Source: Acidimicrobiia bacterium
GTDB lineage: Bacteria > Actinomycetota > Acidimicrobiia > Spongiisociales > JAHEDJ01
Assembly: GCA_029210695.1 (NCBI GenBank)
Contig: JARGFH010000007.1
Coordinates: forward strand, 62,001-105,107
Direction of reading: 5' to 3'
Length of the DNA stretch: 43,107 nt
In this document: positions 19,272-37,555 of the stretch, one piece after another
Layout of the letters: each line of letters opens with the position of its first letter
Position numbering within the stretch: position 1 is the stretch's first letter
Made by a program: the position numbers and the translations under genes
Notes under the pieces: model-generated
Databases searched by the model: none
Told to the model about the DNA's origin: nothing
What the model saw: only the letters and a program-made list of their open reading frames with translations

Positions 19272-20327
19272 CTACGACTCGAGGAGCACGAAGTCGTCGA
19301 GGTCGGCGCTGACACGCACTATCTGATCGACGGCCAGAGCCGGTTTGGCGGGCGAGTTGAGGATCAGTTCCGCATGTCCCAGCGCAATTCTGCACCGCTG
19401 GTGAGCCCCGATGAAGTGGCGGTCGACGACCCGGCCCTCTCCGAGCTGAAATCCTCCCGTTTCGTCTGCCCGGAGGTGCTCGGGACGAATCGCCAGCGTG
19501 ACCGAAGCGTCCCGGCTTGCCCGGCCGGGCACCGAGAACGTCCCGAACGCGGTTCCCACCTCGACCGTTCCGCCGGCGGTGTCCCTCACCGTTCCATCGA
19601 CCAGGTTGCTGTCACCCATGAACGTTGCGGCGAAGCGTGTTGATGGGCGGAGGTACAGGCGGTCCGGGGGTCCGTGATCTTCGATCCGGCCGTCGCGGAG
19701 CACCACGATGGTGTCTGCAAGACTCATGGCCTCCTCTTGATCGTGGGTCACGTGGACGAAGGTGGTTCCTAGCCGTCTCTGGATTTCGCTCAGCTCATCC
19801 TGCATCTGACGTCGGAGCTTGAGGTCGAGGGCGCCCAATGGTTCATCGAGAAGCAACACCCGGGGTTCGATGACCACCGCCCGGCCGAGTGCGATTCGTT
19901 GTCGCTGTCCGCCGGACAGTGAGGCGATATGGCGATCGCCGATGCCTGGTAGACCGACCAGCTCCAGAGCAGTTTCAACGCGCCGGCGGCGTTCGTCACC
20001 CTTTATGCCATGCATGGCGAGGCCGAAGCCGATGTTCTTGGCGACGGTCATGTGCGGGAACAGGGCGTAGTCCTGAAAGACCGTGGTGGTGGGTCGCCGG
20101 ACCGGCGGGAGGTCGGTCACATCGCTGTCGTCGATGTGTATACGCCCCTCCGTGGGCTCCGTGAAGCCGCCCAGAATGCTCAGCAGCGTCGTCTTGCCGC
20201 TGCCGGACGGACCCAGGATGACCACATAGGAACCCGGCTCAACCACGAGATTCACGTCATCGAGCGCGGCGGTATCACCGTAGCGCTTCGTGACACCGTC
20301 GATAGTGAGCCGTGCGCCGCGCGTCAT
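19272..20327 (-). CDS. PotA-like ABC transporter ATP-binding protein
   Basis: GPSGSGKT, VFQDYALFPH, LSGGQRQR, LLLDEPL, C-terminal TOBE region (IRPEH). Confidence 0.93.
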   Translation of the reverse strand: MTRGARLTIDGVTKRYGDTAALDDVNLVVEPGSYVVILGPSGSGKTTLLSILGGFTEPTEGRIHIDDSDVTDLPPVRRPTTTVFQDYALFPHMTVAKNIGFGLAMHGIKGDERRRRVETALELVGLPGIGDRHIASLSGGQRQRIALGRAVVIEPRVLLLDEPLGALDLKLRRQMQDELSEIQRRLGTTFVHVTHDQEEAMSLADTIVVLRDGRIEDHGPPDRLYLRPSTRFAATFMGDSNLVDGTVRDTAGGTVEVGTAFGTFSVPGRASRDASVTLAIRPEHLRADETGGFQLGEGRVVDRHFIGAHQRCRIALGHAELILNSPAKPALAVDQIVRVSADLDDFVLLES

Positions 20328-21112
20328 CGCTGTTTCTCCAGTCTTCGTCTGATGAGGGCATAGGTGATGATGAGCATGCCGATCGACAGGGCGAACACGA
20401 TCGTGCCTGCTGCGTTGGTCTTTGGATTGAGCCCGGTCCGCAGGGCCGACCAGATCTCAACCGGGAGCGTCACATCGAACCGGGTGAGCAGTAGAGCGAT
20501 GACGAACTCGTCCCAGGAAAGCGTGAAGGACAGCAGGAAGGCAGCGAGCAACCCGGGCGCGAGCAATGGGACGGCTACTAGCGCGAGAACCCGTGACTCC
20601 CGGGCCCCGAGATCACGGGCGGCCTGCTCGAAGCGCGCTTGTTGCTCGTTCATCTGACTCAGGATGATGGCGAAGGCGAGGGGAAGATTGATCACCACAT
20701 GGCCGATCGTGACCGTGATCAGCGATCTCCCGATTGCGAGCTCGCTGAAGGCGAGGGACAGGCCGAGTCCTATGACGAGATAGGAGACACCGAGAGGTGC
20801 AATCAAGAACGCCCGGAGTGCCTGGACTCCTTTGGGACGGAATCTGGCCAGGCCGTAGGCAGCGAGGAACCCGAGCACTGTGCAGATCAATGCTGAGGTT
20901 ATGGCGACCAGCGCCGAGTTGCGCAACGCCGCCATCATCCGCCCATCGGCGAACAAGGCCTCATACCAGCGCAAGGACAGGCCGCGGAGTGGAGGAACGG
21001 CTAACGCCCCGTCCTGGAAGGAGAAGAGCACGAGTGCCAGCACGGGCAGAAGGATGAAACCGAATACGGCAGCGAGGTATGAGTAGCGGATCACACCGCC
21101 GATCCGTTTCAT
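20324..21112 (-). CDS. PotC-like ABC permease
   Basis: Hydrophobic; EAA-like loop EQAARDLGA; FTLSWDEF. Confidence 0.9.
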   Translation of the reverse strand: MKRIGGVIRYSYLAAVFGFILLPVLALVLFSFQDGALAVPPLRGLSLRWYEALFADGRMMAALRNSALVAITSALICTVLGFLAAYGLARFRPKGVQALRAFLIAPLGVSYLVIGLGLSLAFSELAIGRSLITVTIGHVVINLPLAFAIILSQMNEQQARFEQAARDLGARESRVLALVAVPLLAPGLLAAFLLSFTLSWDEFVIALLLTRFDVTLPVEIWSALRTGLNPKTNAAGTIVFALSIGMLIITYALIRRRLEKQR

Positions 21113-21984
21113 TCCTGCTCCAGCGTGAGCCGCTTGGCCGAGGCGGCATAGACCACGATGACGACAACGAGGAGAACAACGCTGAGCGCCGCAGCCAGCG
21201 GAAAGTCTCCCCGCCGCTGCACCTGGAGCATGATCGCCTGGGGGAGCAGCAGCTCCTGGCCACCACCGAGGATCTGCGGAGTGATGAAGTCACCGATGGC
21301 GAGGACGAAGGTGAGGAAGGCACCGACGACAACACCGGGCATGCTGAGCGGGAGCGTCACCCGAAGGAAAGTCAAGAAAGACGAGGCGCCGAGGTCCCTC
21401 GCTGCCTTCCGGTACGACTCGGGTATCTGGGTCAGGCTGGCATAGATCGTGAGGGAGGTGAGCATCGTGAAGAAGTGCACGAATCCGACCACGGTTGCCA
21501 GCCGTGTGTTGGACAGTGTGATCGGCGACGAGATCAATCCGGTGGATGTCATCAGTTCGTTGACGACACCGTTCTTGCCCAGAACCAACAGCCAGCTGTA
21601 AGAGCGGACCACGTAGGAGGTCCAGAACGGGAGCACGGCGAGCAGCAGGAGCGGGCGTTGCCAGCGCGGAGGCACGCGATACGCCAGGATGTAGGCGAAC
21701 GGATAGGCCACGAGAATGCTGAAAACGACTGTGATGGCCACGACCTCGAGCGAATTCCGCAACGCGTCGAAGAACACCGGTTCGTCGATGATCCTCCGGT
21801 AGTTGTACAAGCTGGGCGAAGTGTCGATCGTGCCGCCGACTCTTCGAAAGAGGCTGTAGGCGACCACCAACCCCATCGGAGCGAGGAAGAAGAGACTCGT
21901 CCAGAGAAGGGCTGGACCCGCCAGGGTCCAACCCTTCCTCGAAGATGTCTGGGCTGCCGTCAACCCTGCAGGAACCTTGTCCAC
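21109..21984 (-). CDS. PotB-like ABC permease
   Basis: AYPFAY, LPFWTSYVVRSYSW, AARDLGA, TLPLSMPG. Confidence 0.9.
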   Translation of the reverse strand: MDKVPAGLTAAQTSSRKGWTLAGPALLWTSLFFLAPMGLVVAYSLFRRVGGTIDTSPSLYNYRRIIDEPVFFDALRNSLEVVAITVVFSILVAYPFAYILAYRVPPRWQRPLLLLAVLPFWTSYVVRSYSWLLVLGKNGVVNELMTSTGLISSPITLSNTRLATVVGFVHFFTMLTSLTIYASLTQIPESYRKAARDLGASSFLTFLRVTLPLSMPGVVVGAFLTFVLAIGDFITPQILGGGQELLLPQAIMLQVQRRGDFPLAAALSVVLLVVVIVVYAASAKRLTLEQE

Positions 21985-23063
21985 ACGTCGAGCATGGCCG
22001 CGTCGAGGTCGGCGTCCGGGATGAAGTACGGGTACGAGTTACCGACGAACCCCTCCTGTTCGTCCCAGCGGAGGATCTTCTTTTCGGCGTCGCTCAGCGT
22101 GGCTTTTGAGTTGGCCGGCATCGCCCAGTAACACGAGGAGGTAGCCAGACGTGCCTGGCCCTCCGGGCTCACGATGTACTGAACGAACTTGGTGGCCAGG
22201 TCCTTCTTCTCCGAATCTGCGAACACCCCGATAGCTTGCTGCCAGCGGATTCCGCCTTGATTCGGGAGGATCCAGTCGAACGCCGGGTTCTCGGCGTTGA
22301 GGACGCCCGTCACGAACTCGCCGCCGCCGACGATGATGTCGACTTCTCCGGTGGCGAGTGCGGTCTGCGTGGTGACCACATCTCCGATCAAAGCGACATG
22401 CGGCTTGAGGTCCATCAAGCGTTGCTCGATGGCCGGGAGGTCGTCGACGGTCAGGTCGGCAGGCTTGATGCCGAGGCTGATTGCTACCTGCTCCATCACC
22501 GGTATGTAGTAGTCGTACACGGCGATCCGCCCGTCGTACTCCGGATCCCACAGCGATTCGACGTCGCGCATGGCGTCCACCGAGACGTTGTCGCCGTTGA
22601 AGGCGATCGTGTTGTAGCCGAACTTCTCAGGCACTGCGTAGAGCTTGTCGTTCTGGTAGTGCGTTCCGGGTAGATCGACGTCGGCGAAGAAATCATCCCA
22701 CGGATAATCATCCGGGTTCAGCTCGGCGAGCAACCCGGCATCGACAATCCGCGGGACGTCCACCGAATCGACCACGAACACATCCCATTCACCGGGCTGT
22801 GACTGCTCAATGAGCCCCAATGCAACTCCGGTGCCGTCGTAGTCTTTGACGTTGACCGTGACGTTGTTGGCCTCCTCGAAGGGCTGGAGCAACGCCGGAT
22901 CGGTGTGATCACACCACACCAGGGCGTTCAGCTCCGTGGGTGTGTCGCCGGATACCGCACCGCCCTCGGTGGTGTCGGATTCTGCATCGCCGCAGGCGGA
23001 AGCAATGAGTGCGAAGGCGAGGAGTGCTCCGATCAACTGAAGGATCCTGTTGCGTGAATTCAT
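21960..23063 (-). CDS. PotD/PotF-like substrate-binding lipoprotein
   Basis: ATG at 23063 with AGGAG RBS; lipobox IASAC; FEEANNVTV, LWDPEYDGRI, SPEGQA. Confidence 0.88.
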   Translation of the reverse strand: MNSRNRILQLIGALLAFALIASACGDAESDTTEGGAVSGDTPTELNALVWCDHTDPALLQPFEEANNVTVNVKDYDGTGVALGLIEQSQPGEWDVFVVDSVDVPRIVDAGLLAELNPDDYPWDDFFADVDLPGTHYQNDKLYAVPEKFGYNTIAFNGDNVSVDAMRDVESLWDPEYDGRIAVYDYYIPVMEQVAISLGIKPADLTVDDLPAIEQRLMDLKPHVALIGDVVTTQTALATGEVDIIVGGGEFVTGVLNAENPAFDWILPNQGGIRWQQAIGVFADSEKKDLATKFVQYIVSPEGQARLATSSCYWAMPANSKATLSDAEKKILRWDEQEGFVGNSYPYFIPDADLDAAMLDVWTRFLQG

Positions 23064-23099
23064 CTTCTCTTTCTCCTGATGGGAATTGGGCTGTGAGCT

Positions 23100-23115
23100 C
23101 CTATCGGTCGATAGG
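23100..23115. promoter_or_regulatory. Palindromic operator, site 2
   Basis: CCTATC-ggtc-GATAGG between the divergent SBP and agmatinase genes. Confidence 0.8.
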
Positions 23116-23243
23116 TTAGCGGGTGCATGATTCGGCCGGTTTCTTGCAGCGAGCGGATGGCTGCCGCCCCGGACATCGGTTGGTATTCTCCGGCCGGGCC
23201 GGTGGCGACCGGCACCCGCAATTCTAAAGCTTGGAGGCACGGC

Positions 23244-24227
23244 GTGAATCCCGGAACACCCTTTGACGCCAGCCGTGTTCACGCCTTTTCTTCCGGTTCT
23301 ACGTTTGCGGGTGTTCCGGCTGCGACTCTCGAGGACCTCCAGGGAGCACGCGCCGTGATCGTTGGTGCTCCGTTCGACTGGGGCACGTCATATCGTCCCG
23401 GCACGAGGTTCGGGCCCAAAGCCATTCGGGAGAGTGACTACCTTGCCGCCGATGCCTATCGGCCTCATCTGCCGACCGGCCTCAACGCCCTCGAGGGGGT
23501 GGTCGACATCGGAGATATCGAGCTTCGTCCGGGAGACATCGAGGGTGATCTCGATCGGATCGCCGCCACAATCGAACGGATCAGCGGGGACGGATCCATT
23601 CCCATCGTGCTGGGTGGCGATCACACCATCACATATGCCAACGCCACCGGCGTGGCCAGGACATACGGTTTTGGGGAGGTAGCGCTGGTTCACTTTGACG
23701 CCCACGCTGATACCGGAGAGACGACCGGCTATGGATCCCTCTACGGTCATGGAACACCGATGCGCCGGCTGATCGAGTCGGGTGCAGTACCCGGAAGCAG
23801 GTTCGTCCAGATCGGCCTACGCGGGTACTGGCCGGGCCCGGACACGGTTGCCTGGATGCGGGAACAGGGATTGCGCGGCTACCTGATGACCGAGATCGAG
23901 GATCGGGGATTGAAGTCGGTCGTCGACGAGGCGGTCGCGCACGCCGGCGACGGCGCCGACGCAGTGTTCCTGTCCGTCGACATCGATGTTGTCGATCCGG
24001 GCATGGCGCCGGGTACGGGCACCCCGGAGCCGGGCGGTCTCACCTCGAGGCAGATCCTCGACACGGTGCGGAGGATGTCTCGTGAGCTGCGCATCGTCGG
24101 AGCCGACATCGTCGAAGTCTCACCGCCCTACGACGGACCGGGCGCCATCACGTCGTTTCTCGCCAACCGAATCGTCATGGAGGTCCTCAACGGCCTGGCC
24201 GAGCGAGCTGCCGGCGTGAGTTCATAG
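23244..24227 (+). CDS. Agmatinase/guanidinobutyrase-type ureohydrolase
   Basis: RPGTRFGP, GGDHTIT, HFDAHADT, HGTPMRR, SVDIDVVDP, GTGTPEPGG, EVSPPYD. GTG at 23244 after GGAGG. Confidence 0.9.
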   Translation: MNPGTPFDASRVHAFSSGSTFAGVPAATLEDLQGARAVIVGAPFDWGTSYRPGTRFGPKAIRESDYLAADAYRPHLPTGLNALEGVVDIGDIELRPGDIEGDLDRIAATIERISGDGSIPIVLGGDHTITYANATGVARTYGFGEVALVHFDAHADTGETTGYGSLYGHGTPMRRLIESGAVPGSRFVQIGLRGYWPGPDTVAWMREQGLRGYLMTEIEDRGLKSVVDEAVAHAGDGADAVFLSVDIDVVDPGMAPGTGTPEPGGLTSRQILDTVRRMSRELRIVGADIVEVSPPYDGPGAITSFLANRIVMEVLNGLAERAAGVSS

Positions 24228-24267
24228 CCGGTCGGATGGCATTGTGTTACGGCGGAATCTTCGGTAG

Positions 24268-24283
24268 CCTATCGATTGATAGC
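24268..24283. promoter_or_regulatory. Palindromic operator, site 3
   Basis: CCTATC-gatt-GATAGC upstream of TetR gene 1. Confidence 0.75.
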
Positions 24284-24341
24284 CTCGATCGGGCATTCCC
24301 TCGGCTGCTGCTGCAGCTTCACCCTCACACCGAGAGACGGC

Positions 24342-24977
24342 ATGACCGGACCTGAACTCGAATCCGAAGAGCTTCCGACCAGGGAGCGCATTCTGCGCGA
24401 GGCTTCGAGGTTGTTCGGCAAGAAGGGGTATCACGGGACCTCAACCCGCAAGATCGCGGAGGCTGTGGATATCCGCCAACCGTCGCTCTTCCATCACTTC
24501 GCCTCCAAGGACGCCATCATGGCTGAGCTGATCGATATCGATCTCGACGAGGCGGCGAGGGTAGCGCAGGCCCAAGCGTCGGCCGGCGGGTCCGCCGCAC
24601 TCCGGCTCTACAGGTATCTGATCTGGGACATCTCCTTCATCTGCCGGTGTGCGTACGACCTGTCCGCCGTCGAGTCGGTGCTCGACGATCCCGCTTTCTC
24701 AGACAAGCGGGCGCGCCACCAAACGCTCGTCGACGCCAGGCGGTCGTTGATCGAGGAGGCGATCGACTCGGGAGAATTCGTGAAGGTGGATCCCGAGGTG
24801 GCCGAGAGGGCCATCGCCTGGATCCTGAGGGGCGACATCAACGATACGGCCGGACAAACCATCCCCGATGCGGACGTCGTCGCCGACCAGCTCGCTTCGT
24901 TCGTTCTGCGGGCACTCCTGTCCGATCCGTCGCAACTCGACGAGATCAGATCCGCAGCCGGAGAAGATTTCGCGTGA
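24342..24977 (+). CDS. TetR family regulator, AmtR-like (copy 1)
   Basis: HTH TRERILREASRLF...TSTRKIAEAVDIRQPSLFHHFASK resembles the AmtR recognition helix (IADAVGIRQASLYYHF, from memory). Confidence 0.9.
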   Translation: MTGPELESEELPTRERILREASRLFGKKGYHGTSTRKIAEAVDIRQPSLFHHFASKDAIMAELIDIDLDEAARVAQAQASAGGSAALRLYRYLIWDISFICRCAYDLSAVESVLDDPAFSDKRARHQTLVDARRSLIEEAIDSGEFVKVDPEVAERAIAWILRGDINDTAGQTIPDADVVADQLASFVLRALLSDPSQLDEIRSAAGEDFA

Positions 24978-25007
24978 GAACGTAGCGACTGGACGGAGTG
25001 CCTCGGA

Positions 25008-26687
25008 TCAAGCGAAGTGGTACCGCTGCCCGAGGGGGACTTCCGTGACCGGCGCCAGCCGGGCCGGGCGGCCTTCGATCAGCACCGGACCGTCGTCATC
25101 AGGAACCTCGACCTTCGGTACGGAGTTGTTGGCCACCATTTGCGCCCGGGTCAGCCGGCGCGTGTTGCGGACGGCCTCCACGTGGCGGCCGGGGAGACCA
25201 TCAGAGATGCCGGCTACTGCTGCTGCTTGCGAAACGAACACGGTCGCCAGCCTTCCTGGAGCATCGCCCAGTCCGCCGAACATCGGTCCGTACATCCTGG
25301 GCTGGCCGCGACGGATCGAGGAGCTGCCATCACCGGAGGCACCCCAGGCGATGAAACCTCGCTTCACCACCATTTCTGGTTTCGTGCCGAAGAACTCAGG
25401 ACGCCAGAGAACGAGGTCGGCGAGCTTGCCGGGTTCCAGGGAGCCAACCTGCGAGCTCAATCCATGGGTGATGGCAGGGTTGATCGTGTATTTGGCCAGA
25501 TAGCGGCGAACCCGCTCGTTCTGCTGTCCCTCGGCGGCGACTTCCCGCCCCATCACATCGGCGAGCTGCCAGGTGCGGCGAATCACTTCGCCACCTCGTC
25601 CCATTCCGAGCGAGTCCGAATTGATGATGCTGATGGCTCCCTGCTCGTGAAGCCAGCTCTCGGCCTCCATCGTGCGCGCCCTGACTCGTGATCTCGTGGC
25701 GGCGACATCGGAAGCCACTGCGGCGTTCTGGTGGTGGACGATCATGGCCATAGGGACGATCTCGTCGAGGGCGTTGACTCCGAACGGCACGGTTGGCGTG
25801 GTGGAGGAAGCGAGAACATGAGGTTGCGAGACCAATTCGATCGAGTTGGGCACATGCCCGCCGCCGGAGCCCTCCACGTGATATGCGTGCACCGTTCGAC
25901 CATCGAGGGCATCCAGACTATCGGCGAGCGAACCCGACTCGTTGAGCGAATCTGTGTGCATGGCGACGGCTACGTCGAACTCCTCCGCCACCGTCAAGCA
26001 ACAATCAACAATGGACGGAGATCCTCCGAAGTCCTCGTGGATCTTCAGCCCGGATGCTCCTGCGCTCAGTGCCTGCTCGAGGGCCGATGGGTCGTAGGCC
26101 CCTCGCGCCAGGAACGCTACGTTGAGCGGAATCGCTCGCCAGGCCTCTAGCATTCCCTGGAGGTGGGCACGTGGATTGACGCCGACGTCCCACACGCCTC
26201 CCGACCCCATGCCCACGATCGTCGTGATACCCGAGCCGAGCAACACGGGGAGCACGGCCGGAGACGAGAGGTGCACGTGCGAGTCGACTCCCCCAGGAGT
26301 AGCGATCATCCCCTCGCCGGGTAGCAGGCTGGTGTGGGGTCCGATGACCAGGTCGACATTGTCCATCACGTCCGGATTTCCGGCCCGACCGATTCCGACG
26401 ATCCGCCCATCCTTGATCCCGATGTTCCCTTTGAAGACGCCGAGGAGAGGATCCATGATCACCACGTTGCTAATCACGAGATCCAGCATCGAGGCGGAGC
26501 CCGGCCGACTCTGCACGAGCATCCCGGCCTGTGTCGTCTTCCCGCATCCAGCGAGAACCTCGTCGCCGTAGGAAGTCTCATCCCTTTCGATCTCCACGAG
26601 GATCGAGGTATCGCCGAGGCGAATCCGGTCTCCGACGGTGGGACCGTACAGCGTCCCATACAACTCCCGGTCGACTTCACCGGGCAT
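25008..26687 (-). CDS. ureC: Urease alpha subunit-like protein, divergent
   Basis: YGPTVGDRIRLGDT, DSHVH, GLKIHED, HTDSLNE, HAYHVEGSGGGH, SD..MGR, KYTINPAITHG, GKLADLV. Confidence 0.85.
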   Translation of the reverse strand: MPGEVDRELYGTLYGPTVGDRIRLGDTSILVEIERDETSYGDEVLAGCGKTTQAGMLVQSRPGSASMLDLVISNVVIMDPLLGVFKGNIGIKDGRIVGIGRAGNPDVMDNVDLVIGPHTSLLPGEGMIATPGGVDSHVHLSSPAVLPVLLGSGITTIVGMGSGGVWDVGVNPRAHLQGMLEAWRAIPLNVAFLARGAYDPSALEQALSAGASGLKIHEDFGGSPSIVDCCLTVAEEFDVAVAMHTDSLNESGSLADSLDALDGRTVHAYHVEGSGGGHVPNSIELVSQPHVLASSTTPTVPFGVNALDEIVPMAMIVHHQNAAVASDVAATRSRVRARTMEAESWLHEQGAISIINSDSLGMGRGGEVIRRTWQLADVMGREVAAEGQQNERVRRYLAKYTINPAITHGLSSQVGSLEPGKLADLVLWRPEFFGTKPEMVVKRGFIAWGASGDGSSSIRRGQPRMYGPMFGGLGDAPGRLATVFVSQAAAVAGISDGLPGRHVEAVRNTRRLTRAQMVANNSVPKVEVPDDDGPVLIEGRPARLAPVTEVPLGQRYHFA

Positions 26688-27384
26688 CGCTCTGCTCCTC
26701 GTGGGCGTATCCTCGGCGAATCGCACTTGCGACCGTCTCGTCTATGTCGACCTCATCGAGTGGGCCGTCGACCAGACCACCGAATCCCCAGACTTCCCGA
26801 TTGCCACCGAGTGGAATCAGGCTGACTTCTTTGCGTTCATGTGGCTCCCATCTCACGGCCGTTCCGGCCGGAATGTCTAGGCGCCTGCCGAGCGCCGCCC
26901 TCCGGTCGAAGTTGAGACTCCGGTTGGCCTCGGAGAAGTGGAAGTGCGAAGTTACTTCGATCGGTGTACTCGACTGGTTCTCAACGATGACTGCGAGCGG
27001 GGTCCGTCCGGCATTGATCAATACCGGCTCGGTTCCCGGGATGACCTGGCCCGGGACGTCACGATCGTCACGGGCTAGGGCAGGCCCGAAGGGATACTCG
27101 ACTACCACGAGCGCTGTGCCGCTCGGGAAGAGCGCGTCGATCTCAATCCTGCCAACGATCTCCTGGACGCCCTCCATTACGTCTTGGCGGCCCAACACCG
27201 TTTCGGCTCGGGCAACGACCTCCCGGAGAGGCAGCCCGTCCCACGCCATTTCGAGGATCTCGTCACAGATAACGGCGACGGCCTCGGGGGCGTTCAGCTT
27301 TCGGCCTCTGTCGCGTCGTCGCCGTGCCAGTTCGGCCAGGGTGAAGATGGTCAGACGATTGCGTTCCTTGGCGGTCAAGCGCAT
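26677..27384 (-). CDS. ureAB: Fused urease gamma/beta subunit
   Basis: MRLTAKE..., RGRKLNAPEA, ALFPSGT (gamma); SHFHFSEAN, RRLDIPAGTAVRWEP, GFGGLVDG (beta). Confidence 0.9.
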   Translation of the reverse strand: MRLTAKERNRLTIFTLAELARRRRDRGRKLNAPEAVAVICDEILEMAWDGLPLREVVARAETVLGRQDVMEGVQEIVGRIEIDALFPSGTALVVVEYPFGPALARDDRDVPGQVIPGTEPVLINAGRTPLAVIVENQSSTPIEVTSHFHFSEANRSLNFDRRAALGRRLDIPAGTAVRWEPHERKEVSLIPLGGNREVWGFGGLVDGPLDEVDIDETVASAIRRGYAHEEQSDAR

Positions 27385-27402
27385 GAGTGGAGTCCCTTCT
27401 CG

Positions 27403-28842
27403 TCAGGCCCGATCAGCAGGTCGGTCTAGGCCGAGGCCGGGGCTATGTTTCTCAAAGAGATTGCCGAACGACGATTCCAGTCCGAGCGCCACCCGGAATG
27501 GGACGGCATCAGAATGGGGCGGGCCGACGATTTGCATGCCGATCGGCACTCCCGTGCTCGGTGCGAGTCCGATCGGCAAGTTGACCACGGGGAGCGTGCC
27601 GAGGATGTTGAACGGATAGGTCATAACCAGGTCGAGCATGTCCCCGAGATCGCCGGTGCCTCCCGAATCGGGATGACCGAGGTCGGCCGCGATCGAAGTG
27701 GTGACGAGTGTCGGGCATATCAACGCTTCGTACCCGGCGTGGAACACGGTGCGTTGAAGTCCGGCAAACATCTCATCTCCGTAGCGCCAGCTCTCTATCC
27801 ACTCCTCGACGGATACCGGCGCTCTCCCGAAGAACTCGCGAATGTATGGAGTCAGGCGGTCGTCACTCGTGTCAGGGATGGACCCTCGGAGAATGGCGCC
27901 GGACTGGAATGAGAGGTGGGTCATCGCGATGTTCGCGGCTCGCCCTGTCCAGTCGAGTTCTACGGTTTCAACCGTTGCACCGAGTCCGCGCAGCCGGTCG
28001 GCCACAGCCTCGAGCGCGTCGACGATCTCCGAGTCGGGTGAGAAGTAGCCAAGGTCGGGGCTCATCGCGATTCGCATGCCGGAAACCGGCAGGAACTGCG
28101 ACGGCAACTCGAGCGGGGGAGCGGAGTACATGTCGCCATCCAATGGACCGGCGATTGCGTTCTCGAGGAGTATGACATCCGCCACCGTGCGGCCGAGTGG
28201 CCCGGAGGCAGCGTAGGGCTCGCGATTCCACGGCCAATACTCGGGAACCCGGCCCCAGGGAGGCTTGAAGCCGACGACACCGTTCATCGACGCCGGAATC
28301 CTGATCGACCCACCGATATCGCTGCCGGTCGCCAGGATGGAAGATCCGGCGGCCAGGCTCGCTCCCGAGCCGCCGGACGACCCTCCGCTGGTCATTGCCA
28401 GGTTCCACGGCGAACGCGTAATCCCGTGGAGAAACGACCAGGTGACGATGGCCATCGAGAACTCCGGCGTCGTGGTGTGCGCGTGAACAATCCCACCGGC
28501 ATCGAGTATCCGCTGAGTGATTGGGTCGGTGCCGGAGGCGATCTCGTCCTGGAAAAGCAGCGACCCCTGTGTCCACCGGCGGCCGTCGATGCGCGGTTCG
28601 TCCTTGGCGGCGATCGGGAGCCCCTCGAGCGGTCGGGCCGTGCCGCCGGCGTATCGTTCGCCGGCCTCCCTGGCCCGGTCGAGAGCTTCCTCGAAGTATG
28701 TGTCGACAAAGGCGTTGATCAGAGGTTCGGTCGCTTCGGCCCTGGCGATGATGGCCTCGAGCAATTCGAGCGGTGAGAGTTGGCGAGTTCGGAACCCGGC
28801 CAGTGCTTGCGTAGCGTCTAAGTAGGCAAGTTCGTTGGACAT
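27403..28842 (-). CDS. Amidase signature family protein
   Basis: Lys (AAKD), GGSSGGSGA and GSDIGGSIRIPAS give the Ser-cisSer-Lys triad. ATG at 28842 with GGAG RBS. Confidence 0.92.
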   Translation of the reverse strand: MSNELAYLDATQALAGFRTRQLSPLELLEAIIARAEATEPLINAFVDTYFEEALDRAREAGERYAGGTARPLEGLPIAAKDEPRIDGRRWTQGSLLFQDEIASGTDPITQRILDAGGIVHAHTTTPEFSMAIVTWSFLHGITRSPWNLAMTSGGSSGGSGASLAAGSSILATGSDIGGSIRIPASMNGVVGFKPPWGRVPEYWPWNREPYAASGPLGRTVADVILLENAIAGPLDGDMYSAPPLELPSQFLPVSGMRIAMSPDLGYFSPDSEIVDALEAVADRLRGLGATVETVELDWTGRAANIAMTHLSFQSGAILRGSIPDTSDDRLTPYIREFFGRAPVSVEEWIESWRYGDEMFAGLQRTVFHAGYEALICPTLVTTSIAADLGHPDSGGTGDLGDMLDLVMTYPFNILGTLPVVNLPIGLAPSTGVPIGMQIVGPPHSDAVPFRVALGLESSFGNLFEKHSPGLGLDRPADRA

Positions 28843-28904
28843 CGCTCTCCACTTCCTGCTCGCTTGACCGTGGGCAGATGTGCTACCGGCCATCTTCGCG
28901 CAAC

Positions 28905-28920
28905 CCTATCAAACGATAGG
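28905..28920. promoter_or_regulatory. Palindromic operator, site 4
   Basis: CCTATC-aaac-GATAGG upstream of the amidase-urease operon. Confidence 0.8.
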
Positions 28921-28934
28921 CGAGACCGGGCTTT

Positions 28935-29606
28935 CTAGACCGAACGGTCGTCGTACAGCGGCAGCAGCGCCATTGCGTCCCGCCTCACCCGATCGAGTGA
29001 GTCGGACTCGGCCAGGAGGCTACGGAGAATGAGGGTGGCCGCCTCGTCTGGATGCGATTGTCGCTTGAGATAGTCGGTGGTGGCGAAGAGGTTGGCCCGC
29101 GCCAGCAAAGCGCTCACCATCTGCTGTGCGAGCCAGGAGTCGCCATCGGCAAACTCGCCGGACTCCTGACCGGAGCAAATCAACGAATGAGTGAGGTCGT
29201 CAAACTGGTTGACCAGAGTTTGGAAGAGGGCCAGGTCGGGGTCATTGAGGACTTCGTAGCTGATGTGGGCCCGCATGTCGTAGGGGGAGTTGACGATCCG
29301 GGTGATCTCCCCGCGGATCATGGCGTACAGCTTGGCCGCTGGTGCAGCGTCGGCCTCCACCAGGCGCTTGAGGCCGGCAACTGCGGGAAGGAGGTCATGC
29401 TTGTACAGCTCTTCGGCGATAGCCCGTTTGGTGGGGAAGTGAAAGAACAGTGAGGGCTGGCTGATCCCGACGGCGGCCGCGATCTCTCTGGTGGTCGTTC
29501 CGTGGTACCCGTTGACCGCCAGCAGCCGGGAAGCTTCGATCAGGATGCGCTCGCGAGTATCCGGAGTGTCGACTGCGGTCGTCTTGTCATTCCCTTTGCT
29601 GTTCAT
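28935..29606 (-). CDS. TetR family regulator, AmtR-like (copy 2)
   Basis: TRERILIEASRLL...TTTREIAAAVGISQPSLFFHFPTK. Corresponds to the C-terminal third of track ORF 28935..30779. Confidence 0.88.
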   Translation of the reverse strand: MNSKGNDKTTAVDTPDTRERILIEASRLLAVNGYHGTTTREIAAAVGISQPSLFFHFPTKRAIAEELYKHDLLPAVAGLKRLVEADAAPAAKLYAMIRGEITRIVNSPYDMRAHISYEVLNDPDLALFQTLVNQFDDLTHSLICSGQESGEFADGDSWLAQQMVSALLARANLFATTDYLKRQSHPDEAATLILRSLLAESDSLDRVRRDAMALLPLYDDRSV

Positions 29607-29717: not shown

Positions 29718-30851
29718 ATGACCCGGGTGAACTCGTGGAACGAGTGGGATCCGCTCAAGCACGTGGTCGTTGGCCGTATCGACAGCCGGATGGTAGGTGC
29801 ACCCGAGGCCGGCATGGTTCTCGATCTTCCGGGCGTCGGTCTGAAGCCGGGCGAGTGGCACGAAATACCCGATCATTACGTGGATAAGGCCACCGCGCAG
29901 ATGGAGAGCTTCGCTTCCCTGCTTGCCGGACGAGGCATCAAAGTCGACCGACCGACTTCGATGGACGATCACCAGTACGTTCGCACTCCGGACTGGGAAT
30001 GCAACCACATGTTTGGGACGATGCCGCCCCGCGACATCCTGATGGCGTACGGCAACGAGATCCTCGAGGCGACCATGTCGCAGCGATCCCGCTGGTTCGA
30101 GTTCCTCGCCTACAAGCCGCTCCTCGAGCGGTACTTCAAAGAGGATCCCAACTTCCTGTGGGAGGCAGCTCCCAAACCGCGTTTGTCTGATGAGTCCTAC
30201 GTCCCCGGCTACTGGGACGACTTCTACGGCACATGGTCGAACGAGGAACTGACGGCCCGCATGGAGCGGTTTGAGTTTCATCTGACCGAGAAGGAGCCTC
30301 TCTTCGATGTTGCCGACGCCATGCGATTTGGCAAAGACATCTTCATCCAGCATTCGGCACCCACCAACAGAGCCGGCATCGACTGGTTCAAACGCCACTT
30401 CGAAGCGCGGGGTTTCCGCGTACATGTTCTGGCGTTTGGCGGGACTGTTCAGCCTTGGCATATCGACGTAACGCTCGTTCCGCTGCGGCCGGGTCTGATC
30501 ATCGTGAACCCGAACCATCCGTCCCTCGTTCCAGAGTTCTACGAACTGTTCAAGATCAACGATTGGGAGGTCGTCGAGGCGGTTCCCGTCTCCAGGGCCA
30601 AGCAGCCGCCCTACAGCATGTGCCACGAGTCGCTCGGCTACAACGTGTTCTCGCTCGATCCGAGCACCGTGTGCGTGGAGTCGAACGAAGTTGAGTTCAT
30701 GGATCAACTCGACGGACTCGGTCTTGACGTCGTCCCCATCGACTTCATCGATGTATCGATGTTCGGCGGCGCCCTGCACTGCGCAACCCTCGACGTTGAG
30801 CGGGACGGCGACATGGAGGACTACTTCCCGAACCAGATTCCCGGATTCTGA
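29718..30851 (+). CDS. Amidinotransferase, copy 2
   Basis: VNSWNEWDPLKHVVVG, PRDILM, FDVAD, WHID, GGALHC; GGAGG RBS. Confidence 0.9.
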   Translation: MTRVNSWNEWDPLKHVVVGRIDSRMVGAPEAGMVLDLPGVGLKPGEWHEIPDHYVDKATAQMESFASLLAGRGIKVDRPTSMDDHQYVRTPDWECNHMFGTMPPRDILMAYGNEILEATMSQRSRWFEFLAYKPLLERYFKEDPNFLWEAAPKPRLSDESYVPGYWDDFYGTWSNEELTARMERFEFHLTEKEPLFDVADAMRFGKDIFIQHSAPTNRAGIDWFKRHFEARGFRVHVLAFGGTVQPWHIDVTLVPLRPGLIIVNPNHPSLVPEFYELFKINDWEVVEAVPVSRAKQPPYSMCHESLGYNVFSLDPSTVCVESNEVEFMDQLDGLGLDVVPIDFIDVSMFGGALHCATLDVERDGDMEDYFPNQIPGF

Positions 30852-30897: not shown

Positions 30898-32307
30898 ATG
30901 GCGGACTACATGAGCACCGAGACCCCGGCGGTTGTTGAACGCGATAAGCGCCACCATGTTCATCCATATCAGGTGTTCGACTCGTTCGCCGAGCATGGCG
31001 CACTCCCCATCGCCTCCGGGCACGGTGCCTTCATCACCGACACCGACGGCAAGCGGTATGTGGACGCGGTCGGCGGTCTGTGGTGCACGAACATCGGGTT
31101 GGGACGCGAGGAAATGGTCGAGGCTATCGCCCACCAGGTGAGACGACTCGCCTATTCCAACCCGTTTGTCGATATGACACATGTGCCGGCGGCTGATCTA
31201 GCGACCAAACTCGCCGAGCTCGCTCCCGGTGACTTGAACCACGTGTTCTTCAGTACGGGTGGTTCGACCGCCAACGATCTTGCCTACCGGATCATTCAGT
31301 TCTATCAAGCAGTACGCGGCAAACCCGAAAAGCGCCACGTGATCTCTCGCATCGACGCCTATCACGGTCAGACGTACGCGGCCGTGTCGATCGGAGGCAA
31401 GCCGGGTGACCGGATCGATGAGTTCGAGTTCCTCGACAACATCCATCATCTCAGCTCACCAAACCAGTATCGGTACGGGCGCCATCTCTCCGAGAAGGAA
31501 TTCGGCGACCAGTTGTACGACGAGTTCGAGAGCAAGGTGGCCGAACTCGGTGGGGCCGAAAAGGTCGCCGCCTTTTTCGCCGAGCCGATCATGGGTGCAG
31601 GTGGCGTTGTCCCTCCTCCCGACAACTATCTGAAACGCATCTGGGAGTTCTGCCGGGACAACGACATCATCTATGTTTCGGATGAAGTCGTCACCGGTTT
31701 CGGGCGTCTGGGCGAATGGTTCGCTTCTGAGAAGATCTTCGGTATCGAACCCGACATCATCACCTCCGCCAAGGGTCTCACGTCTGGATACTTGCCACTA
31801 GGCGCAACGATCTTCTCAGATCGGATCTTCGATGTGATCGCCGAACCCGGACACCATCGTTATCTGCCGCTGGGTTTCACGTACGGCGGTCATCCTGTCT
31901 CCTGCGCGGCCGCTCTCAAGAACATCGAGATAATTGAGAACGAGGGCATCCTCGAGCACGTCCGTGAGATCGGGCCATACCTCATGGAGCAGTTGGAGAC
32001 TCTGCGGGAGCTGCCGATGGTTGGTGACGTCCGGGGCTCCCACCTGATGGTGTGCATCGAGTTCGTGCGTGATGTCGAGACCGGTGAGGCATATCCAGAC
32101 GAAATCGACATCGGCAAGCGGGTGTCGAACGAGTGCGATGCTCGCGGCTTGATCGTGCGACCGGTCGAGAACCTCAACATCATGTCGCCGCCGCTCATCA
32201 TCACACGGCAGGACATCGAGTTCATCGTCGACACGTTACGGGAGTCGATCCCGCCGGCCTATGCGGCGGCCGAGAAGGCGATGACCGAGATTGGGAAGGG
32301 GACATAG
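30898..32307 (+). CDS. Class III PLP aminotransferase (SpuC/putrescine-pyruvate-like)
   Basis: DAVGGLWCTNIG, AYHG, EPIMGAGG, DEVVTGFGRLG, SAKGLTSGY, GFTYGGHP; AAGGA RBS. Confidence 0.92.
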   Translation: MADYMSTETPAVVERDKRHHVHPYQVFDSFAEHGALPIASGHGAFITDTDGKRYVDAVGGLWCTNIGLGREEMVEAIAHQVRRLAYSNPFVDMTHVPAADLATKLAELAPGDLNHVFFSTGGSTANDLAYRIIQFYQAVRGKPEKRHVISRIDAYHGQTYAAVSIGGKPGDRIDEFEFLDNIHHLSSPNQYRYGRHLSEKEFGDQLYDEFESKVAELGGAEKVAAFFAEPIMGAGGVVPPPDNYLKRIWEFCRDNDIIYVSDEVVTGFGRLGEWFASEKIFGIEPDIITSAKGLTSGYLPLGATIFSDRIFDVIAEPGHHRYLPLGFTYGGHPVSCAAALKNIEIIENEGILEHVREIGPYLMEQLETLRELPMVGDVRGSHLMVCIEFVRDVETGEAYPDEIDIGKRVSNECDARGLIVRPVENLNIMSPPLIITRQDIEFIVDTLRESIPPAYAAAEKAMTEIGKGT

Positions 32308-32311
32308 GTCG

Positions 32312-33937
32312 ATGACTGCGGTGCGGGTCTTCCACAGTGGGATGGTCTACACGGCGGACGCCGCAGGGACCCGGACGCAGGCAGTGGCAGTCGGCCACGG
32401 CCGCATCATGGCCGTGGGCAGCGACAACGAGGTGCTAACCGCCTATCCGAGCGCCGAACTGATGGATCTCGGAGGCCGCACCATGGTCCCCGGCTTCATC
32501 GACGCTCACAACCACTATCTGGCTACCGGGGAAGGGCTGGCAGCCATCGATGCGCGCTTTCCGGGAGTTGCTTCGCCTGATGACCTCGTGGCGGCAGTAG
32601 CCGCAGCAGCCGACGACCGAGCGGCCGGGCAGTGGTTGTCCGGTTTTGGGTTCGATCACGCCAAGTACGACCGGTGGCCCACCCGGTGGGACCTCGACCG
32701 AGCGACCACGGAGCATCCTGTCGCCATCCGTCACGTCTCGGGTCATTACCTGCTGGTCAACTCCGTCGCCCTGGCTGCAGCCGGCGTTAACGACTCCACC
32801 CCCGATCCAAAGGGCGGCGCTTTCGTACGGGACGAAGTCGGACACCTCACCGGGCTGTGCCTCGATGCAGCGATGGGCATCGTCGAGCCGGTCGCGGTTG
32901 ACATCGGTTCGCACGGCCCGAACTTCCACGTGCAGGCTTCGATGGACGACCTGGTGGCTGCCGTTGATCGGGCTGGCCGGGCCTACGTGGCCGCCGGCCT
33001 TACGACCGTGTGCGACGCCCAGGTCACCAGACGTGAAATGGCCGCCTATCGCCGGGCCCGGGCGCTGGGTTCCTGGTGGGTGCGAGTGGCTTGCATGCCT
33101 CTCTCCAACCAACTGGCCGAGTACGGTGCCGCCGGTCTGGCCAGTGGGTTCGGAGACGACATGCTCTGGTTGGGGCCGATGAAGTTCTACATGGATGGCT
33201 CCCTGATCGGTGGAACGGCGGTCTTCACGGAACCGTATGGAGAACACGGGGAGTTCGAGGGGATCTTCTACTGGCAGCCCGAGGAGATGCGGTCGATGAT
33301 CACCGAAGCGCATCGCCAGGGATGGCAGGTGGGAGTGCACACCCAGGGAGACCGCGCCATTGAAGCAACCCTCGATGCCATCGAGGCGGCTATGGAGTCC
33401 GATCCACGTCCGGACCCGCGGCACCGAATAGAGCACTGCGGCCTTCCAACGGCGGAGCAGGTCGCCCGCATGGCACGCCTGGGCGTGGTAGCAATCAACC
33501 AGCCCAACTATCTGCACGATCAGGGGGACGAGTTCCTCGCCAGGCTCGGCGAGCGGGCTCATCGGCTCCAGCCCCTTCGAGCCGAGCTCGAGGCTGGAGT
33601 GACGATCGCCCTGAGCAGCGACGCCGACGTCACCACTTTCCGGCCGCTCGAGACCATCACCAACGCGGTGATGCGCACGACTATGGGAGGTCGAGCGATC
33701 GGCGCCGACCAGGCGTTGACCGTTGAGGAGGCGATCCGAGCCCACACCATCGACGCGGCATACTCCATCTTCGCCGAAGACCGGCTCGGATCCATCGAAC
33801 CCGGCAAACAGGCCGATCTGGTCGTCATCGACGGTGACCCCTTCTCGGCTCCGCCCAACGAGATTCGTGATCTGGAAGTGTGGATGACCGTGATCGACGG
33901 AAAGACGGTCTTCGATCCGGGCGGGCTGATCCTGTGA
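32312..33937 (+). CDS. YtcJ-like amidohydrolase (Amidohydro_3)
   Basis: PGFIDAHNH, KFYMDGS, VHTQGD, RIEHC, SSD, GSIEPGKQADLV. Confidence 0.9.
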   Translation: MTAVRVFHSGMVYTADAAGTRTQAVAVGHGRIMAVGSDNEVLTAYPSAELMDLGGRTMVPGFIDAHNHYLATGEGLAAIDARFPGVASPDDLVAAVAAAADDRAAGQWLSGFGFDHAKYDRWPTRWDLDRATTEHPVAIRHVSGHYLLVNSVALAAAGVNDSTPDPKGGAFVRDEVGHLTGLCLDAAMGIVEPVAVDIGSHGPNFHVQASMDDLVAAVDRAGRAYVAAGLTTVCDAQVTRREMAAYRRARALGSWWVRVACMPLSNQLAEYGAAGLASGFGDDMLWLGPMKFYMDGSLIGGTAVFTEPYGEHGEFEGIFYWQPEEMRSMITEAHRQGWQVGVHTQGDRAIEATLDAIEAAMESDPRPDPRHRIEHCGLPTAEQVARMARLGVVAINQPNYLHDQGDEFLARLGERAHRLQPLRAELEAGVTIALSSDADVTTFRPLETITNAVMRTTMGGRAIGADQALTVEEAIRAHTIDAAYSIFAEDRLGSIEPGKQADLVVIDGDPFSAPPNEIRDLEVWMTVIDGKTVFDPGGLIL

Positions 33938-34941
33938 GCTTCCGAATGCCGGCCGAATGGGAGCCACACGAGCGCACCCTGATGGCCTGGCCGGTGCACC
34001 ACTCGTGGGGAGCCCACCTCGACCGTGCTCGGCAGGCGTATGCCGATCTGGCCAACGCCATCATCGACTTCGAGCCGCTCACGATGCTCGTCAACCCTGG
34101 CGAGGGCGCCGGAGCCCATCGCCTCCTGAGCAGCCGGATCGACCTGGTCGAGATCCCCTACGAGTCGGCGTGGCAGCGCGACTCCGGGCCCCTCGTCGTG
34201 GTGGATGACCAGGGATCTCGCCGCGGAATCGATTTCCGCTTCAACGCCTGGGGTGAACGCTTTTTGCCCTACCAACAGACCGCCGAAGCCGCCGGGGCGA
34301 TCCTGTCCCACCTGGGCATCGAGCGGGTCGCCTCGTCCATGGTGCTCGAAGGAGGCTCGATCACCGTCGACGGTGAGGGCACGCTCATCACCACCGAGCA
34401 ATGTTTACTCAATCCCAACCGCAATCGGGATATGACGAGAGGAGACATCGAACGGGAACTCGGGGAGAAGCTGGGTATCGAGAAGGTCATCTGGCTCCCC
34501 GTCGGCATCGCCGCCGACTTCGCTACCGACGGACACGTAGACGCGGTGTGCACATTCGCGGCGCCGGGCGCCGTCCTCCTCCAAGGCTGCACCGACCCCC
34601 ACGATCCCGATTTCGAGCGTATGGCGGCCAACCGGGCGGCGCTCGACACGCAGACCGACAGCTCCGGACGCTCCTTGCAGGTCATCGAACTCCCCGACTT
34701 GCCCGGCGAGCCGTTCAAGGGGGCCGACATCGGGGTTGCCTACGCCAACCTCGTCATCGTCAACGGGGCCGTGATCGGCGGGATCGGCGGATACCCAACC
34801 GACGATGAGGCCCTGGAGATCATCGGCACGGCGTTCCCCCAACGCGCGGTGGTCGGTGTCGATGCAAGGATCATCTCGTACGCGGGCGGCGGTCCCCATT
34901 GCACGACGATGCAGATACCGGCAGGAGGGTCCACAACATGA
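33934..34941 (+). CDS. aguA: Agmatine deiminase family protein
   Basis: MPAEWEPH, WQRDSGP, FNAWG, LEGGSI, TEQCLLNPNRN, TDGHVD, GGGPHCTTMQIP. GTGA overlap start. Confidence 0.9.
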   Translation: MSFRMPAEWEPHERTLMAWPVHHSWGAHLDRARQAYADLANAIIDFEPLTMLVNPGEGAGAHRLLSSRIDLVEIPYESAWQRDSGPLVVVDDQGSRRGIDFRFNAWGERFLPYQQTAEAAGAILSHLGIERVASSMVLEGGSITVDGEGTLITTEQCLLNPNRNRDMTRGDIERELGEKLGIEKVIWLPVGIAADFATDGHVDAVCTFAAPGAVLLQGCTDPHDPDFERMAANRAALDTQTDSSGRSLQVIELPDLPGEPFKGADIGVAYANLVIVNGAVIGGIGGYPTDDEALEIIGTAFPQRAVVGVDARIISYAGGGPHCTTMQIPAGGSTT

Positions 34942-37548: not shown

Positions 37549-37555
37549 AACGATC

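Follow-up and report, generated by a model that had tools for sequence, protein, structure and literature searches.

The ureAB-ureC locus

We examined a 43,107-nucleotide stretch of contig JARGFH010000007.1 (positions 62,001 to 105,107 of the forward strand) from an Acidimicrobiia bacterium; the whole of this stretch is referred to below as the window. The source genome (GCA_029210695.1) comprises 3.91 Mb in 181 contigs and is 97.85% complete with 0.38% contamination. Four minus-strand genes occupy positions 29606-25008 of the window, in the order TetR, amidase, fused ureAB and ureC-like gene. The last of these (25008..26687), which carries the Pfam domains Urease_alpha and Amidohydro_1, encodes a 559-amino acid protein resembling the catalytic subunit of urease, and it is the main subject of this report. 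The gene before it (26677..27384) encodes a fusion of the urease gamma and beta subunits (235 amino acids; Urease_gamma at residues 1-98, Urease_beta at 111-207), which passes the NF009671 model for "bifunctional urease subunit gamma/beta" (258 bits, cut-off 243). Farther upstream are genes for an amidase-signature amidase of 496 amino acids (27403..28893, with an alternative start at ATG 28842; PF01425, 260.6 bits) and for a TetR-family regulator with a TetR_N domain (28935..29606).

The genes are closely packed, with 41 nt between TetR and amidase and 18 nt between amidase and ureAB. The likely ureC start is ATG 26687, which gives a protein equal in length to its homologues, and the reading frame remains open to GTG 26726. 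From this ATG, which is preceded by GAGGAG, ureC overlaps the end of ureAB by 11 nt; thus, ureAB and ureC are probably translationally coupled. An initial annotation of this DNA, made for the interval bounded by the ureC stop (25008) and the amidase frame's second ATG (28842), had described a highly divergent urease in an operon that starts with an amidase. The amidase is indeed present, but the TetR gene shares its strand and ends 41 nt before it, so that the operon may start there instead.

A urease-family protein with an altered substrate pocket

The UreC-like protein matches PF00449 (141 bits) and PF01979 (164 bits), and the adjoining gene product matches PF00547 and PF00699, which places the pair in the urease structural family. 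Its sequence identity with the solved ureases is 41-46% throughout; it aligns with 39 urease chains in Foldseek at TM scores of 0.89-0.92 and passes the subfamily model NF009686 (711.6 bits, cut-off 354). Its score against the urease equivalog TIGR01792, 624.5 bits, is below the cut-off of 680, and three other UreC equivalog models are likewise not reached. An AlphaFold2 model built from a 26-row alignment has a mean pLDDT of 78.8 and a pTM of 0.87.

The catalytic core appears complete. As the initial annotation had noted, all of the metal-ligand motifs (DSHVH, GLKIHED, HTD, HAYH and NSDS) are present in the translation of 25008-26726 on the minus strand. When the protein is aligned to Helicobacter pylori UreB and jack bean urease, the six ligands H137, H139, K215, H244, H270 and D358 (559-amino acid numbering) fall on those of H. 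pylori UreB. The same holds for the catalytic residues, namely the substrate His and Asp (H217 and D219), the flap His (H318) and the Arg of the SRxR motif (R334). Lys215 is the predicted counterpart of the Lys that is carbamylated in canonical ureases.

Segments that are nearly invariant in other ureases are nevertheless replaced, as had also been claimed. Compared with the H. pylori and jack bean enzymes and with 52 other UreC sequences, the flap of the window protein reads MAMIVHHQ (canonical MVCHH), its pocket loop reads GMGSGGVWDVGVNP (canonical GGGTGPAxGT..TPG), and two further segments read SDSLGMGR (canonical SDSQAMGR) and AGCGKTTQAGM. The pocket loop, which corresponds to the GGGTGPA region, is three residues shorter, with Pro-Ala and one Gly deleted; the flap Cys is Val317; and the Ala of SDSQAMGR, Ala363 in Klebsiella aerogenes numbering, is Gly361. 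The changed positions are presumably those that contact the urea nitrogens, or belong to the first shell, in urease structures.

These differences are shared by a large set of relatives. An alignment of 81 clade members with 41 canonical ureases has 94 columns with at least 97% identity in both sets, every ligand and catalytic residue among them, and ten columns that are fixed differently in the two sets (at least 85% in each). The clade-specific states are Lys to Arg101, Thr to Gly169, Lys to Arg195, Val to Leu254, Cys to Val317, Ala to Gly361 and Ile to Val526, together with the loss of Pro-Ala after position 163 and of a Gly after 172. None of the 41 canonical sequences has the pocket states (the Pro-Ala/Gly deletion, Val317 and Gly361). 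Within the shortened loop, Trp166 and Asp167 are at least 90% conserved in the 26-row alignment. Among the best 120 database matches (55-100% identity), and taking the 12 commonest strings for each motif, the commonest loop is G-M-G-x-G-G-V-W/F-D-V-G-V-N-P, with M-x-M-T/I-V-H-R/H-Q as the flap and N-S-D-S-M/L-G-M-G-R as the Asp motif.

Eight close relatives, compared in 28 pairs, give dN/dS values of 0.09-0.23, with 0.12, 0.11 and 0.095 for the three least saturated pairs. The initial annotation would have been undone by unconserved substitutions under relaxed selection; what we find is a set of changes fixed in 81 relatives under purifying selection, and we reject gene decay on the strength of these ratios and of the conservation of the residues.

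Phylogeny and distribution

The UreC-like protein is placed outside the canonical ureases. In an 83-row IQ-TREE phylogeny it falls within a 41-row clade (SH-aLRT 100, branch length 0.26) whose members come from Actinomycetota, Chloroflexota and Thermomicrobiota, apart from the ureases of Bacillota, Pseudomonadota, Acidobacteriota and Helicobacter and from other canonical ureases. A wider FastTree phylogeny of 151 rows, rooted on four canonical alphaproteobacterial rows, places it in a 102-row clade (support 94, branch length 0.24); FastTree with its quick search is less reliable for long branches, and several of the representatives are long-branched. The proteins of the clade are annotated throughout as "urease subunit alpha". 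The separate clade and the missed TIGR01792 cut-off, together with pocket changes kept under purifying selection, bear out the earlier view that the enzyme is, by its sequence, not a canonical urease.

Close relatives are rare. The close type (at least 74% identity) occurs in 2 of 301 genomes of the class, two genomes of the same genus (G288 and G294) gave no match at the threshold used, and the best identity among 400 other genomes of the phylum is at most 53%. A 21-kb syntenic copy of the gene island described below is found in locus L002, at 85-96% protein identity. The close subclade is thus patchy, which suggests that the island is accessory and mobile. Other non-canonical loops were seen elsewhere: a gammaproteobacterial one reading GIGSAFAVDSGSLH (L014 and L017) and an actinobacterial "FEEP" loop (L071).

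Maturation genes and nickel

Urease is the textbook example of an enzyme that needs a dedicated, GTP-driven set of chaperones for its nickel centre. No UreE, UreF, UreG or UreD is encoded in the window, either by tblastn with Roseburia-type queries or by Pfam and NCBIfam annotation of the called reading frames, so that the earlier statement of no accessory genes nearby holds; it can be widened to the whole genome, which has a single UreC by family search and no match to UreG (TIGR00101), UreF (PF01730), UreD (PF01774) or UreE (PF05194). Each of these helper searches gave matches in known ureolytic control genomes.

The same pattern extends across the clade. We sorted loci by their loop motif and counted helpers within 6 kb of ureC, restricting the count to loci whose total flank is 4 kb or more. 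UreG, UreF and UreD were each found in none of 68 clade loci, compared with 32, 29 and 25, respectively, of 39 canonical loci. On the FastTree phylogeny, a linked helper is present in none of the 77 labelled loci of the 102-row clade (the other 25 rows have too little flank to be labelled) and in 38 of 46 loci outside it. The linked-helper state requires a minimum of seven changes over the 123 labelled rows, five of which are single canonical rows without a detected helper. In a Pfam control, ureEFGD was seen in the Roseburia-type loci L024 and L025 and in none of eight clade loci.

Whole genomes were also searched. Among 16 clade-bearing genomes, 14 have no UreG-level match, two of these having weak matches of 29 and 51 bits; the remaining two have UreG at or near the cut-off (260 bits in G309, and a fragment 0.5 bit under the cut-off in G682). 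In a sample of 401 genomes from the phylum, 65 have a UreC homologue, 48 have UreG and 47 have both; these tallies take in one unpublished genome (G387), which has both. The 18 with UreC alone are the source genome, 14 members of family f62 and three others. UreG was found in none of the 22 genomes of family f62, and six f62 loci, which fall inside the 102-row clade, carry a further non-canonical loop (FEEP...). From the lack of helpers in the window, the genome and most clade-bearing genomes we infer, with good support, the different maturation route that the initial annotation had put forward.

Loop remodelling and helper loss appear to be separable, because ureases of Roseburia and other Lachnospiraceae (L024:11686-14425 and L025:11747-14400) combine a shortened, different loop (GGGCGAKTLSIEAPG) and a flap Cys replaced by Ala with a full ureEFGD set. 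A separate case is the locus L155:882-3230, where the loop reads GGGMGLAFDVGTNP and a UreF-like gene is retained.

As for nickel itself, the genome has no NiCoT permease by family search, and it encodes a nickel superoxide dismutase, which indicates that the cell handles the metal. The initial annotation had reported no nickel transporter in the window. That statement is less safe than it seemed: an Opp/Nik-family importer at 35977-41388 has nickel-type best matches, but all of them are below their cut-offs (NikA, 104 bits against 393; Opp2B, 286 against 350; NikC, 251 against 358). Judged by these scores, the importer neither shows nor excludes nickel uptake, and it may bring in a metal, a metallophore or a substrate of the island. 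It belongs to a plus-strand stretch (35977-43013) in which the importer genes, with sub-cut-off matches of nickel or opine type, are followed by a second Amidohydro_3 gene, 34% identical to the one at 32291.

A neighbourhood of guanidino-compound genes

On the other side of the ureC stop, the plus strand carries a second TetR-family regulator (24342..24977, start inferred; PF00440, 58 bits), convergent with ureC, and beyond it an arginase-family ureohydrolase (23244..24227; PF00491, 286.7 bits). The ureohydrolase is two genes from ureC and is its nearest neighbour apart from regulators. It passes the agmatinase model TIGR01230 (198.5 bits, cut-off 174.3), and its closest solved relatives, at 182-199 bits, are "Probable agmatinase 2" (7esr/7oi1, E 1.2e-57), proclavaminate amidinohydrolase, 3-guanidinopropionase and guanidinobutyrase. 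We take 7esr/7oi1 to be the Synechocystis guanidine hydrolase. All of these relatives release urea or act on a guanidino group, and the window enzyme is accordingly a predicted urea-releasing hydrolase of agmatinase, guanidino-acid hydrolase or guanidine hydrolase type. Divergent from it lies a PotABCD-type ABC importer (19272..23282, minus strand; SBP_bac_8, two BPD_transp_1, and ABC_tran with TOBE_2), whose match to PotD is weak.

Divergent from the TetR-amidase-urease operon is a second group of genes, all on the plus strand. It begins with an enzyme resembling arginine:glycine amidinotransferase (29718..30851), which has no Pfam or NCBIfam match at the thresholds used and aligns with human AGAT (1jdx, E 2.4e-64) over residues 4-370, and also with SxtG, HsvA and StrB1. 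A class-III (omega) aminotransferase (30898..32307, start inferred; PF00202, 288.5 bits) follows and passes NF005447 (673.6 bits, cut-off 618). Next are an Amidohydro_3 metal-dependent hydrolase (32291..33937; PF07969, 333 bits), an agmatine-deiminase-like enzyme of the PAD_porph family (33880..34941; PF04371, 350 bits) and a CN-hydrolase resembling N-carbamoylputrescine amidase (34899..35879; PF00795, 165 bits). The latter two score below the cut-offs of their specific models, with 294 bits against 381.8 for TIGR03380 and 231.5 against 410 for TIGR03381. The deiminase-like protein is 40% identical to the PAD_porph protein encoded next to ureC in Streptomyces-like loci. Taken together, the predicted functions indicate that the island concerns guanidino compounds.

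The amidinotransferase at 29718 is 84-96% identical among the relatives L002, L003, L004, L006 and L086, above UreC itself. A paralogue of it, 50% identical and also without a Pfam or NCBIfam match, lies at 14702-15889 on the minus strand beside its own class-III aminotransferase (15919-17157, plus strand).

Scans for regulatory elements yielded little. No sigma-70-like promoter was found, the one terminator-like site is below the count in shuffled sequence, and the intergenic region between TetR and the amidinotransferase has no inverted repeat. Rfam, including its guanidine and other riboswitches, gave no match at the gathering score in the whole window and none at E of 1 or less in 22800-30200.

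Farther out, two MoeA-like molybdopterin genes, one of them with an N-terminal SAMP-like stretch, lie between two genes of the aldehyde:ferredoxin oxidoreductase family (AFOR_N/AFOR_C), the whole occupying 5956-7914 (plus), 7978-11414 (plus) and 11489-13372 (minus). This is a tungsten/molybdenum aldehyde oxidoreductase set, unexpected in an actinobacterial island. Two reading frames of 480 amino acids (13332-14774, minus) and 334 amino acids (4470-5474, plus) have coding-like GC3 values of 0.80 and 0.69, respectively, and no Pfam or NCBIfam match.

Partner genes across the clade

The amidase belongs to the amidase signature family, with PF01425 spanning residues 43-463 and a GGSSGGS stretch. 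Its top NCBIfam model, NF004815, is matched at 305.7 bits, below the cut-off of 506, no equivalog is reached, and its nearest solved relatives (GatA, 6-aminohexanoate-cyclic-dimer hydrolase and urethanases) score 100-138 bits. The initial annotation had presented the urease-like enzyme as paired with this amidase. The pairing holds at the window, but among the 68 clade loci with enough flank it occurs within 6 kb of ureC in only seven, all of the Acidimicrobiia-type subclade (L002, L003, L004, L006, L007, L009 and L086), where it adjoins ure(AB)C in three orientations. Thus, the amidase, for which we found no specific curated model or solved relative, appears to be a subclade-specific partner, and the pairing does not define the chemistry of the clade. 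The same subclade accounts for the amidinotransferase (5 of 68 loci) and for an isochorismatase-like hydrolase (6 of 68). The upstream TetR is kept in L002, L006 and L086, and a homologue of the second TetR adjoins ureC in L002, L004, L005, L006 and L086.

Other partners are more widely spread. Amidohydro_3 genes, 29-36% identical to the window copy in their products, occur in 16 of the 68 loci and often flank ureAB-ureC directly. Arginase-family genes occur in four, and additionally in the window itself and in L087, where a homologue 84% identical to the window ureohydrolase lies beside ureC. At L099:10708-13307, and also in L101 and L104, a DUF1989 gene and two arginase-family genes in tandem come after ureAB-ureC; if DUF1989 is a carboxyguanidine deiminase subunit family, it would add a further guanidine link. 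A PAD_porph deiminase and a TetR gene accompany ureAB-ureC in all seven Streptomyces-like loci, together with homologues of aldehyde dehydrogenase, leuB, ilvE and leuA, an arrangement that presumably corresponds to SCO5520-5529. A PAD_porph gene also adjoins ureAB in L070. In a paper on ArgR (PMC3293853), SCO5527 is given as a homologue of the agmatine deiminase pathway.

Transport genes recur as well. APC permease genes adjoin ureC in L088, L103, L138, L142 and L152, and ure(AB)C lies within Pot-type (polyamine-type) importer operons, with no helper genes nearby, in L014:9275-15000 and L017:9274-14955, which are sister non-canonical lineages, and in L071:3626-10125 from family f62. On these annotations the clade is found consistently among C-N hydrolases for nitrogen-rich compounds, with a partner that varies.

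Comparison with known systems

The ure(AB)C-only arrangement is already in print for Streptomyces. One urease cluster of S. coelicolor and S. avermitilis consists of ure(AB)C only, according to a 2008 paper on Brucella urease (PMC2492869), and a 2017 study lists ure(AB)C as one of three cluster types in cave Streptomyces (PMC5489568). These clusters (SCO5525-SCO5526 and SAV2715) resemble the window locus in having a fused gamma-beta gene, an alpha gene and no accessory genes. The Streptomyces-like loci L076 and L078-L083 fall inside the 102-row clade and share a shortened loop, FGPVWGVGVNS, and the motif SD(A/S)xGMGR. They differ in that their UreC is 46-47% identical to that of the window (tblastn), in having a PAD_porph deiminase and a BetI-type TetR as neighbours instead of an amidase, and in having Gly for Asp167. 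Their genomes also contain a canonical urease and UreG, so that helper independence could not be seen in Streptomyces. Our searches, here and below of the main texts of open-access papers and bioRxiv preprints, found no biochemical study of the Streptomyces ure(AB)C-only cluster. Two apparent hits are unrelated: the "orphan urease" of PMC2667541 is from animals, and the "SCO5526" of PMC4991794 belongs to another operon.

Bacillus subtilis likewise has structural genes only, with no ureDEFG and no match to our UreF, UreD and UreG family controls; it differs in having three separate subunits and in being a single species rather than a large clade. Very little urease is made from its ureABC without accessory genes (Kim et al. 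2005, as cited in PMC8600894).

The UreA2B2 enzyme of Helicobacter mustelae type (PDB 3qga) resembles the window pair in having a fused gamma-beta and an alpha subunit, and the alternative metal is a property of UreA2B2. Work by Carter and colleagues in 2011 is said to have found it active without nickel accessory proteins. It differs in being a recent paralogue within Helicobacter, and the Helicobacter row of our tree (L037) sits with the canonical ureases. We considered a Helicobacter-type iron urease as an identity for the window enzyme and rejected it: 3qga_C scores 499 bits, compared with 513 for H. pylori UreB, and stands below 25 nickel-urease sequences, with 43% identity, a TM score of 0.90 and a fold rank of 30. 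The iron cofactor and distribution of UreA2B2 are described in PMC11541087 and PMC3919588.

The canonical nickel ureases (K. aerogenes 2kau, S. pasteurii 4ubp, H. pylori 1e9y and jack bean 3la4) share the fold, ligands, catalytic residues and subunit domains of the window enzyme and differ from it in their full-length GGGTGPA loop, flap Cys, Ala and UreDEFG helpers; the window enzyme, 41-46% identical to them, is under the TIGR01792 cut-off. A large, deep clade with a fixed alternative pocket, absent linked helpers and helper-less genomes was not found described in the literature searched.

Interpretation

Gene content and conservation mark the UreC-like protein as a real, conserved and apparently helper-free urease variant. 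Its TetR-amidase-ureAB-ureC operon would encode a two-gene urease-family amidohydrolase belonging to a large, non-canonical "ure(AB)C-only" clade, in which the dinuclear-metal machinery appears complete and a different first shell around the substrate has become fixed. We infer that the protein is an active dinuclear hydrolase whose centre is put together without UreDFG; the GTPase machinery would be replaced by spontaneous loading of nickel, or the site would hold another metal.

Much the same observations could be explained by an ordinary nickel urease whose accessory genes were missed, being in the unassembled 2% of a draft genome (181 contigs, 97.85% complete) or too divergent for the models. 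The importer with nickel-type best matches 7 kb away and the UreF-like gene kept by the basal relative L155 would fit this account, which we nonetheless regard as highly improbable. It would require four separate helper families to escape searches that match in ureolytic controls, and linked helpers to be overlooked in all 77 labelled clade loci when 38 of 46 outside the clade have them. UreG, moreover, is among the most conserved proteins of the urease system and was found by the same search in 48 of 401 sampled genomes, yet 14 of 16 clade-bearing genomes lack a UreG-level match. That the protein is a catalytically dead or decaying relic, or has a non-enzymatic role, is scarcely credible. The missing helpers would suit a relic, as would the very low activity of B. 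subtilis urease without them (PMC8600894), but dN/dS is 0.09-0.23, the ligands and catalytic residues are invariant across Actinomycetota, Chloroflexota, Thermomicrobiota and metagenomes, the ureAB and ureC genes appear to be translationally coupled, and operon partners are conserved.

What the enzyme acts on is harder to decide. The explanation we favour, to which we give about an even chance of being right, is a helper-independent urease that completes the release of guanidino nitrogen in this organism. Imported guanidino compounds (agmatine, guanidino acids or guanidine) would give up their amidino group in the form of urea, either straight away or once the amidinotransferase has transferred it; the neighbouring arginase-family ureohydrolase would release the urea, and UreAB-UreC would hydrolyse it, setting ammonia free in the final step of a guanidino-nitrogen island under the control of two TetR repressors. 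Plain urea is favoured as the substrate because a urea-releasing ureohydrolase adjoins, because the urea-orienting residues are intact and arginase-family neighbours recur in other loci, and because the pathway from imported guanidino compounds to released nitrogen follows a simple logic. The genome, in addition, has no urea carboxylase over the cut-off, which leaves the UreC-like enzyme as its only candidate urea-degrading enzyme and speaks for urea in the same way.

The initial annotation had instead considered a substituted urea or carbamoyl compound. A helper-free enzyme of the same kind, with its substrate shifted to an N-substituted urea (a ureido compound such as N-carbamoylputrescine or another deiminase product) or to a small amide, is a substantial possibility, though one that we think probably wrong; the enzyme would in that case be a ureidohydrolase built on the urease scaffold. 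The columns that separate the clade from canonical ureases include the deleted Pro-Ala, the change of Cys to Val and that of Ala to Gly, which would be first-shell positions around the urea nitrogens in urease structures; Trp166 and Asp167 are new and nearly invariant in the shortened loop; and the UreC score is under the equivalog cut-off. The company that ure(AB)C keeps points the same way: the order ure(AB)-ureC-PAD_porph-TetR in seven of seven Streptomyces-like loci and the PAD_porph gene of L070, Amidohydro_3 genes no more than 6 kb away in 16 of 68 clade loci, often on the direct flank, Pot-type importer genes in L014, L017 and L071, and APC permeases in five loci. The known helper-free precedents, furthermore, presumably needed no rebuilt pocket. 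Against such a shift, the agmatine-deiminase-like gene of the window already has its own N-carbamoylputrescine-amidase-like partner (33880-35879), the nearest non-regulator gene to ureC encodes a putative urea-releasing ureohydrolase, and genes of the arginase family turn up beside other members of the clade. Also invariant are the substrate His and Asp, the flap His and the Arg, whose role in the urease mechanism is to orient and protonate urea. Nor is any single new binding residue common to all, since the Streptomyces-like type has Gly for Asp167.

Several points count against the helper-independent urease that we favour. Its fixed changes fall at positions that, in urease structures, presumably contact the urea nitrogens, and the two known helper-free or nearly helper-free ureases reportedly needed no pocket changes, so that helper independence alone does not explain the remodelling. 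The genome has no UrtA-type urea transporter over the cut-off in a binding-protein search. An agmatine-deiminase-type neighbour, the product of which is a ureido compound and not urea, is present in all seven Streptomyces-like loci and in L070, and the sister non-canonical lineages (L014 and L017) and L071 carry ure(AB)C inside Pot-type importer operons. The AlphaFold2 model has pLDDT below 50 at the remodelled loop (164-169) and in the AGCGK region (45-64). With regard to helper independence itself, L155 (a 3.3-kb contig), which sits on a long branch and is the earliest to diverge in the clade, has the UreF-like gene directly downstream, which suggests that helpers were lost after L155 diverged; the 15 clade-bearing genomes reached through their loci carry no completeness figure, and the source genome is in 181 contigs. 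Finally, no assay, metal or expression data for any clade member were found in the literature searched.

The favoured urease reading and the ureido one have different consequences. For either, a clade with an intact core in helper-less genomes makes self-assembly, and the question of the metal, testable with two genes. It also bears on annotation, as ureC is used to track ureolysis in soil and ocean environments and the clade carries the urease label by sequence only. If the enzyme is a true helper-free urease, it would offer a two-gene part for engineered ureolysis, for example in calcite precipitation, an application in which having to supply accessory genes is a recognized obstacle (PMC8600894).

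A bolder version of the ureido reading, which we hold to be doubtful, is that a widespread branch (Actinomycetota, Chloroflexota, Thermomicrobiota and others) dropped UreDEFG, rebuilt its pocket and hydrolyses the N-substituted ureas that deiminases produce from guanidino compounds, perhaps using some metal besides nickel. If so, the urease scaffold would support a new enzyme activity as well as a new metallocentre that assembles itself, and many "ureC" matches in soil and marine metagenomes would not be ureases. A preference for ureido compounds would, for these organisms, fill a step in the recycling of nitrogen from guanidino compounds and polyamines.

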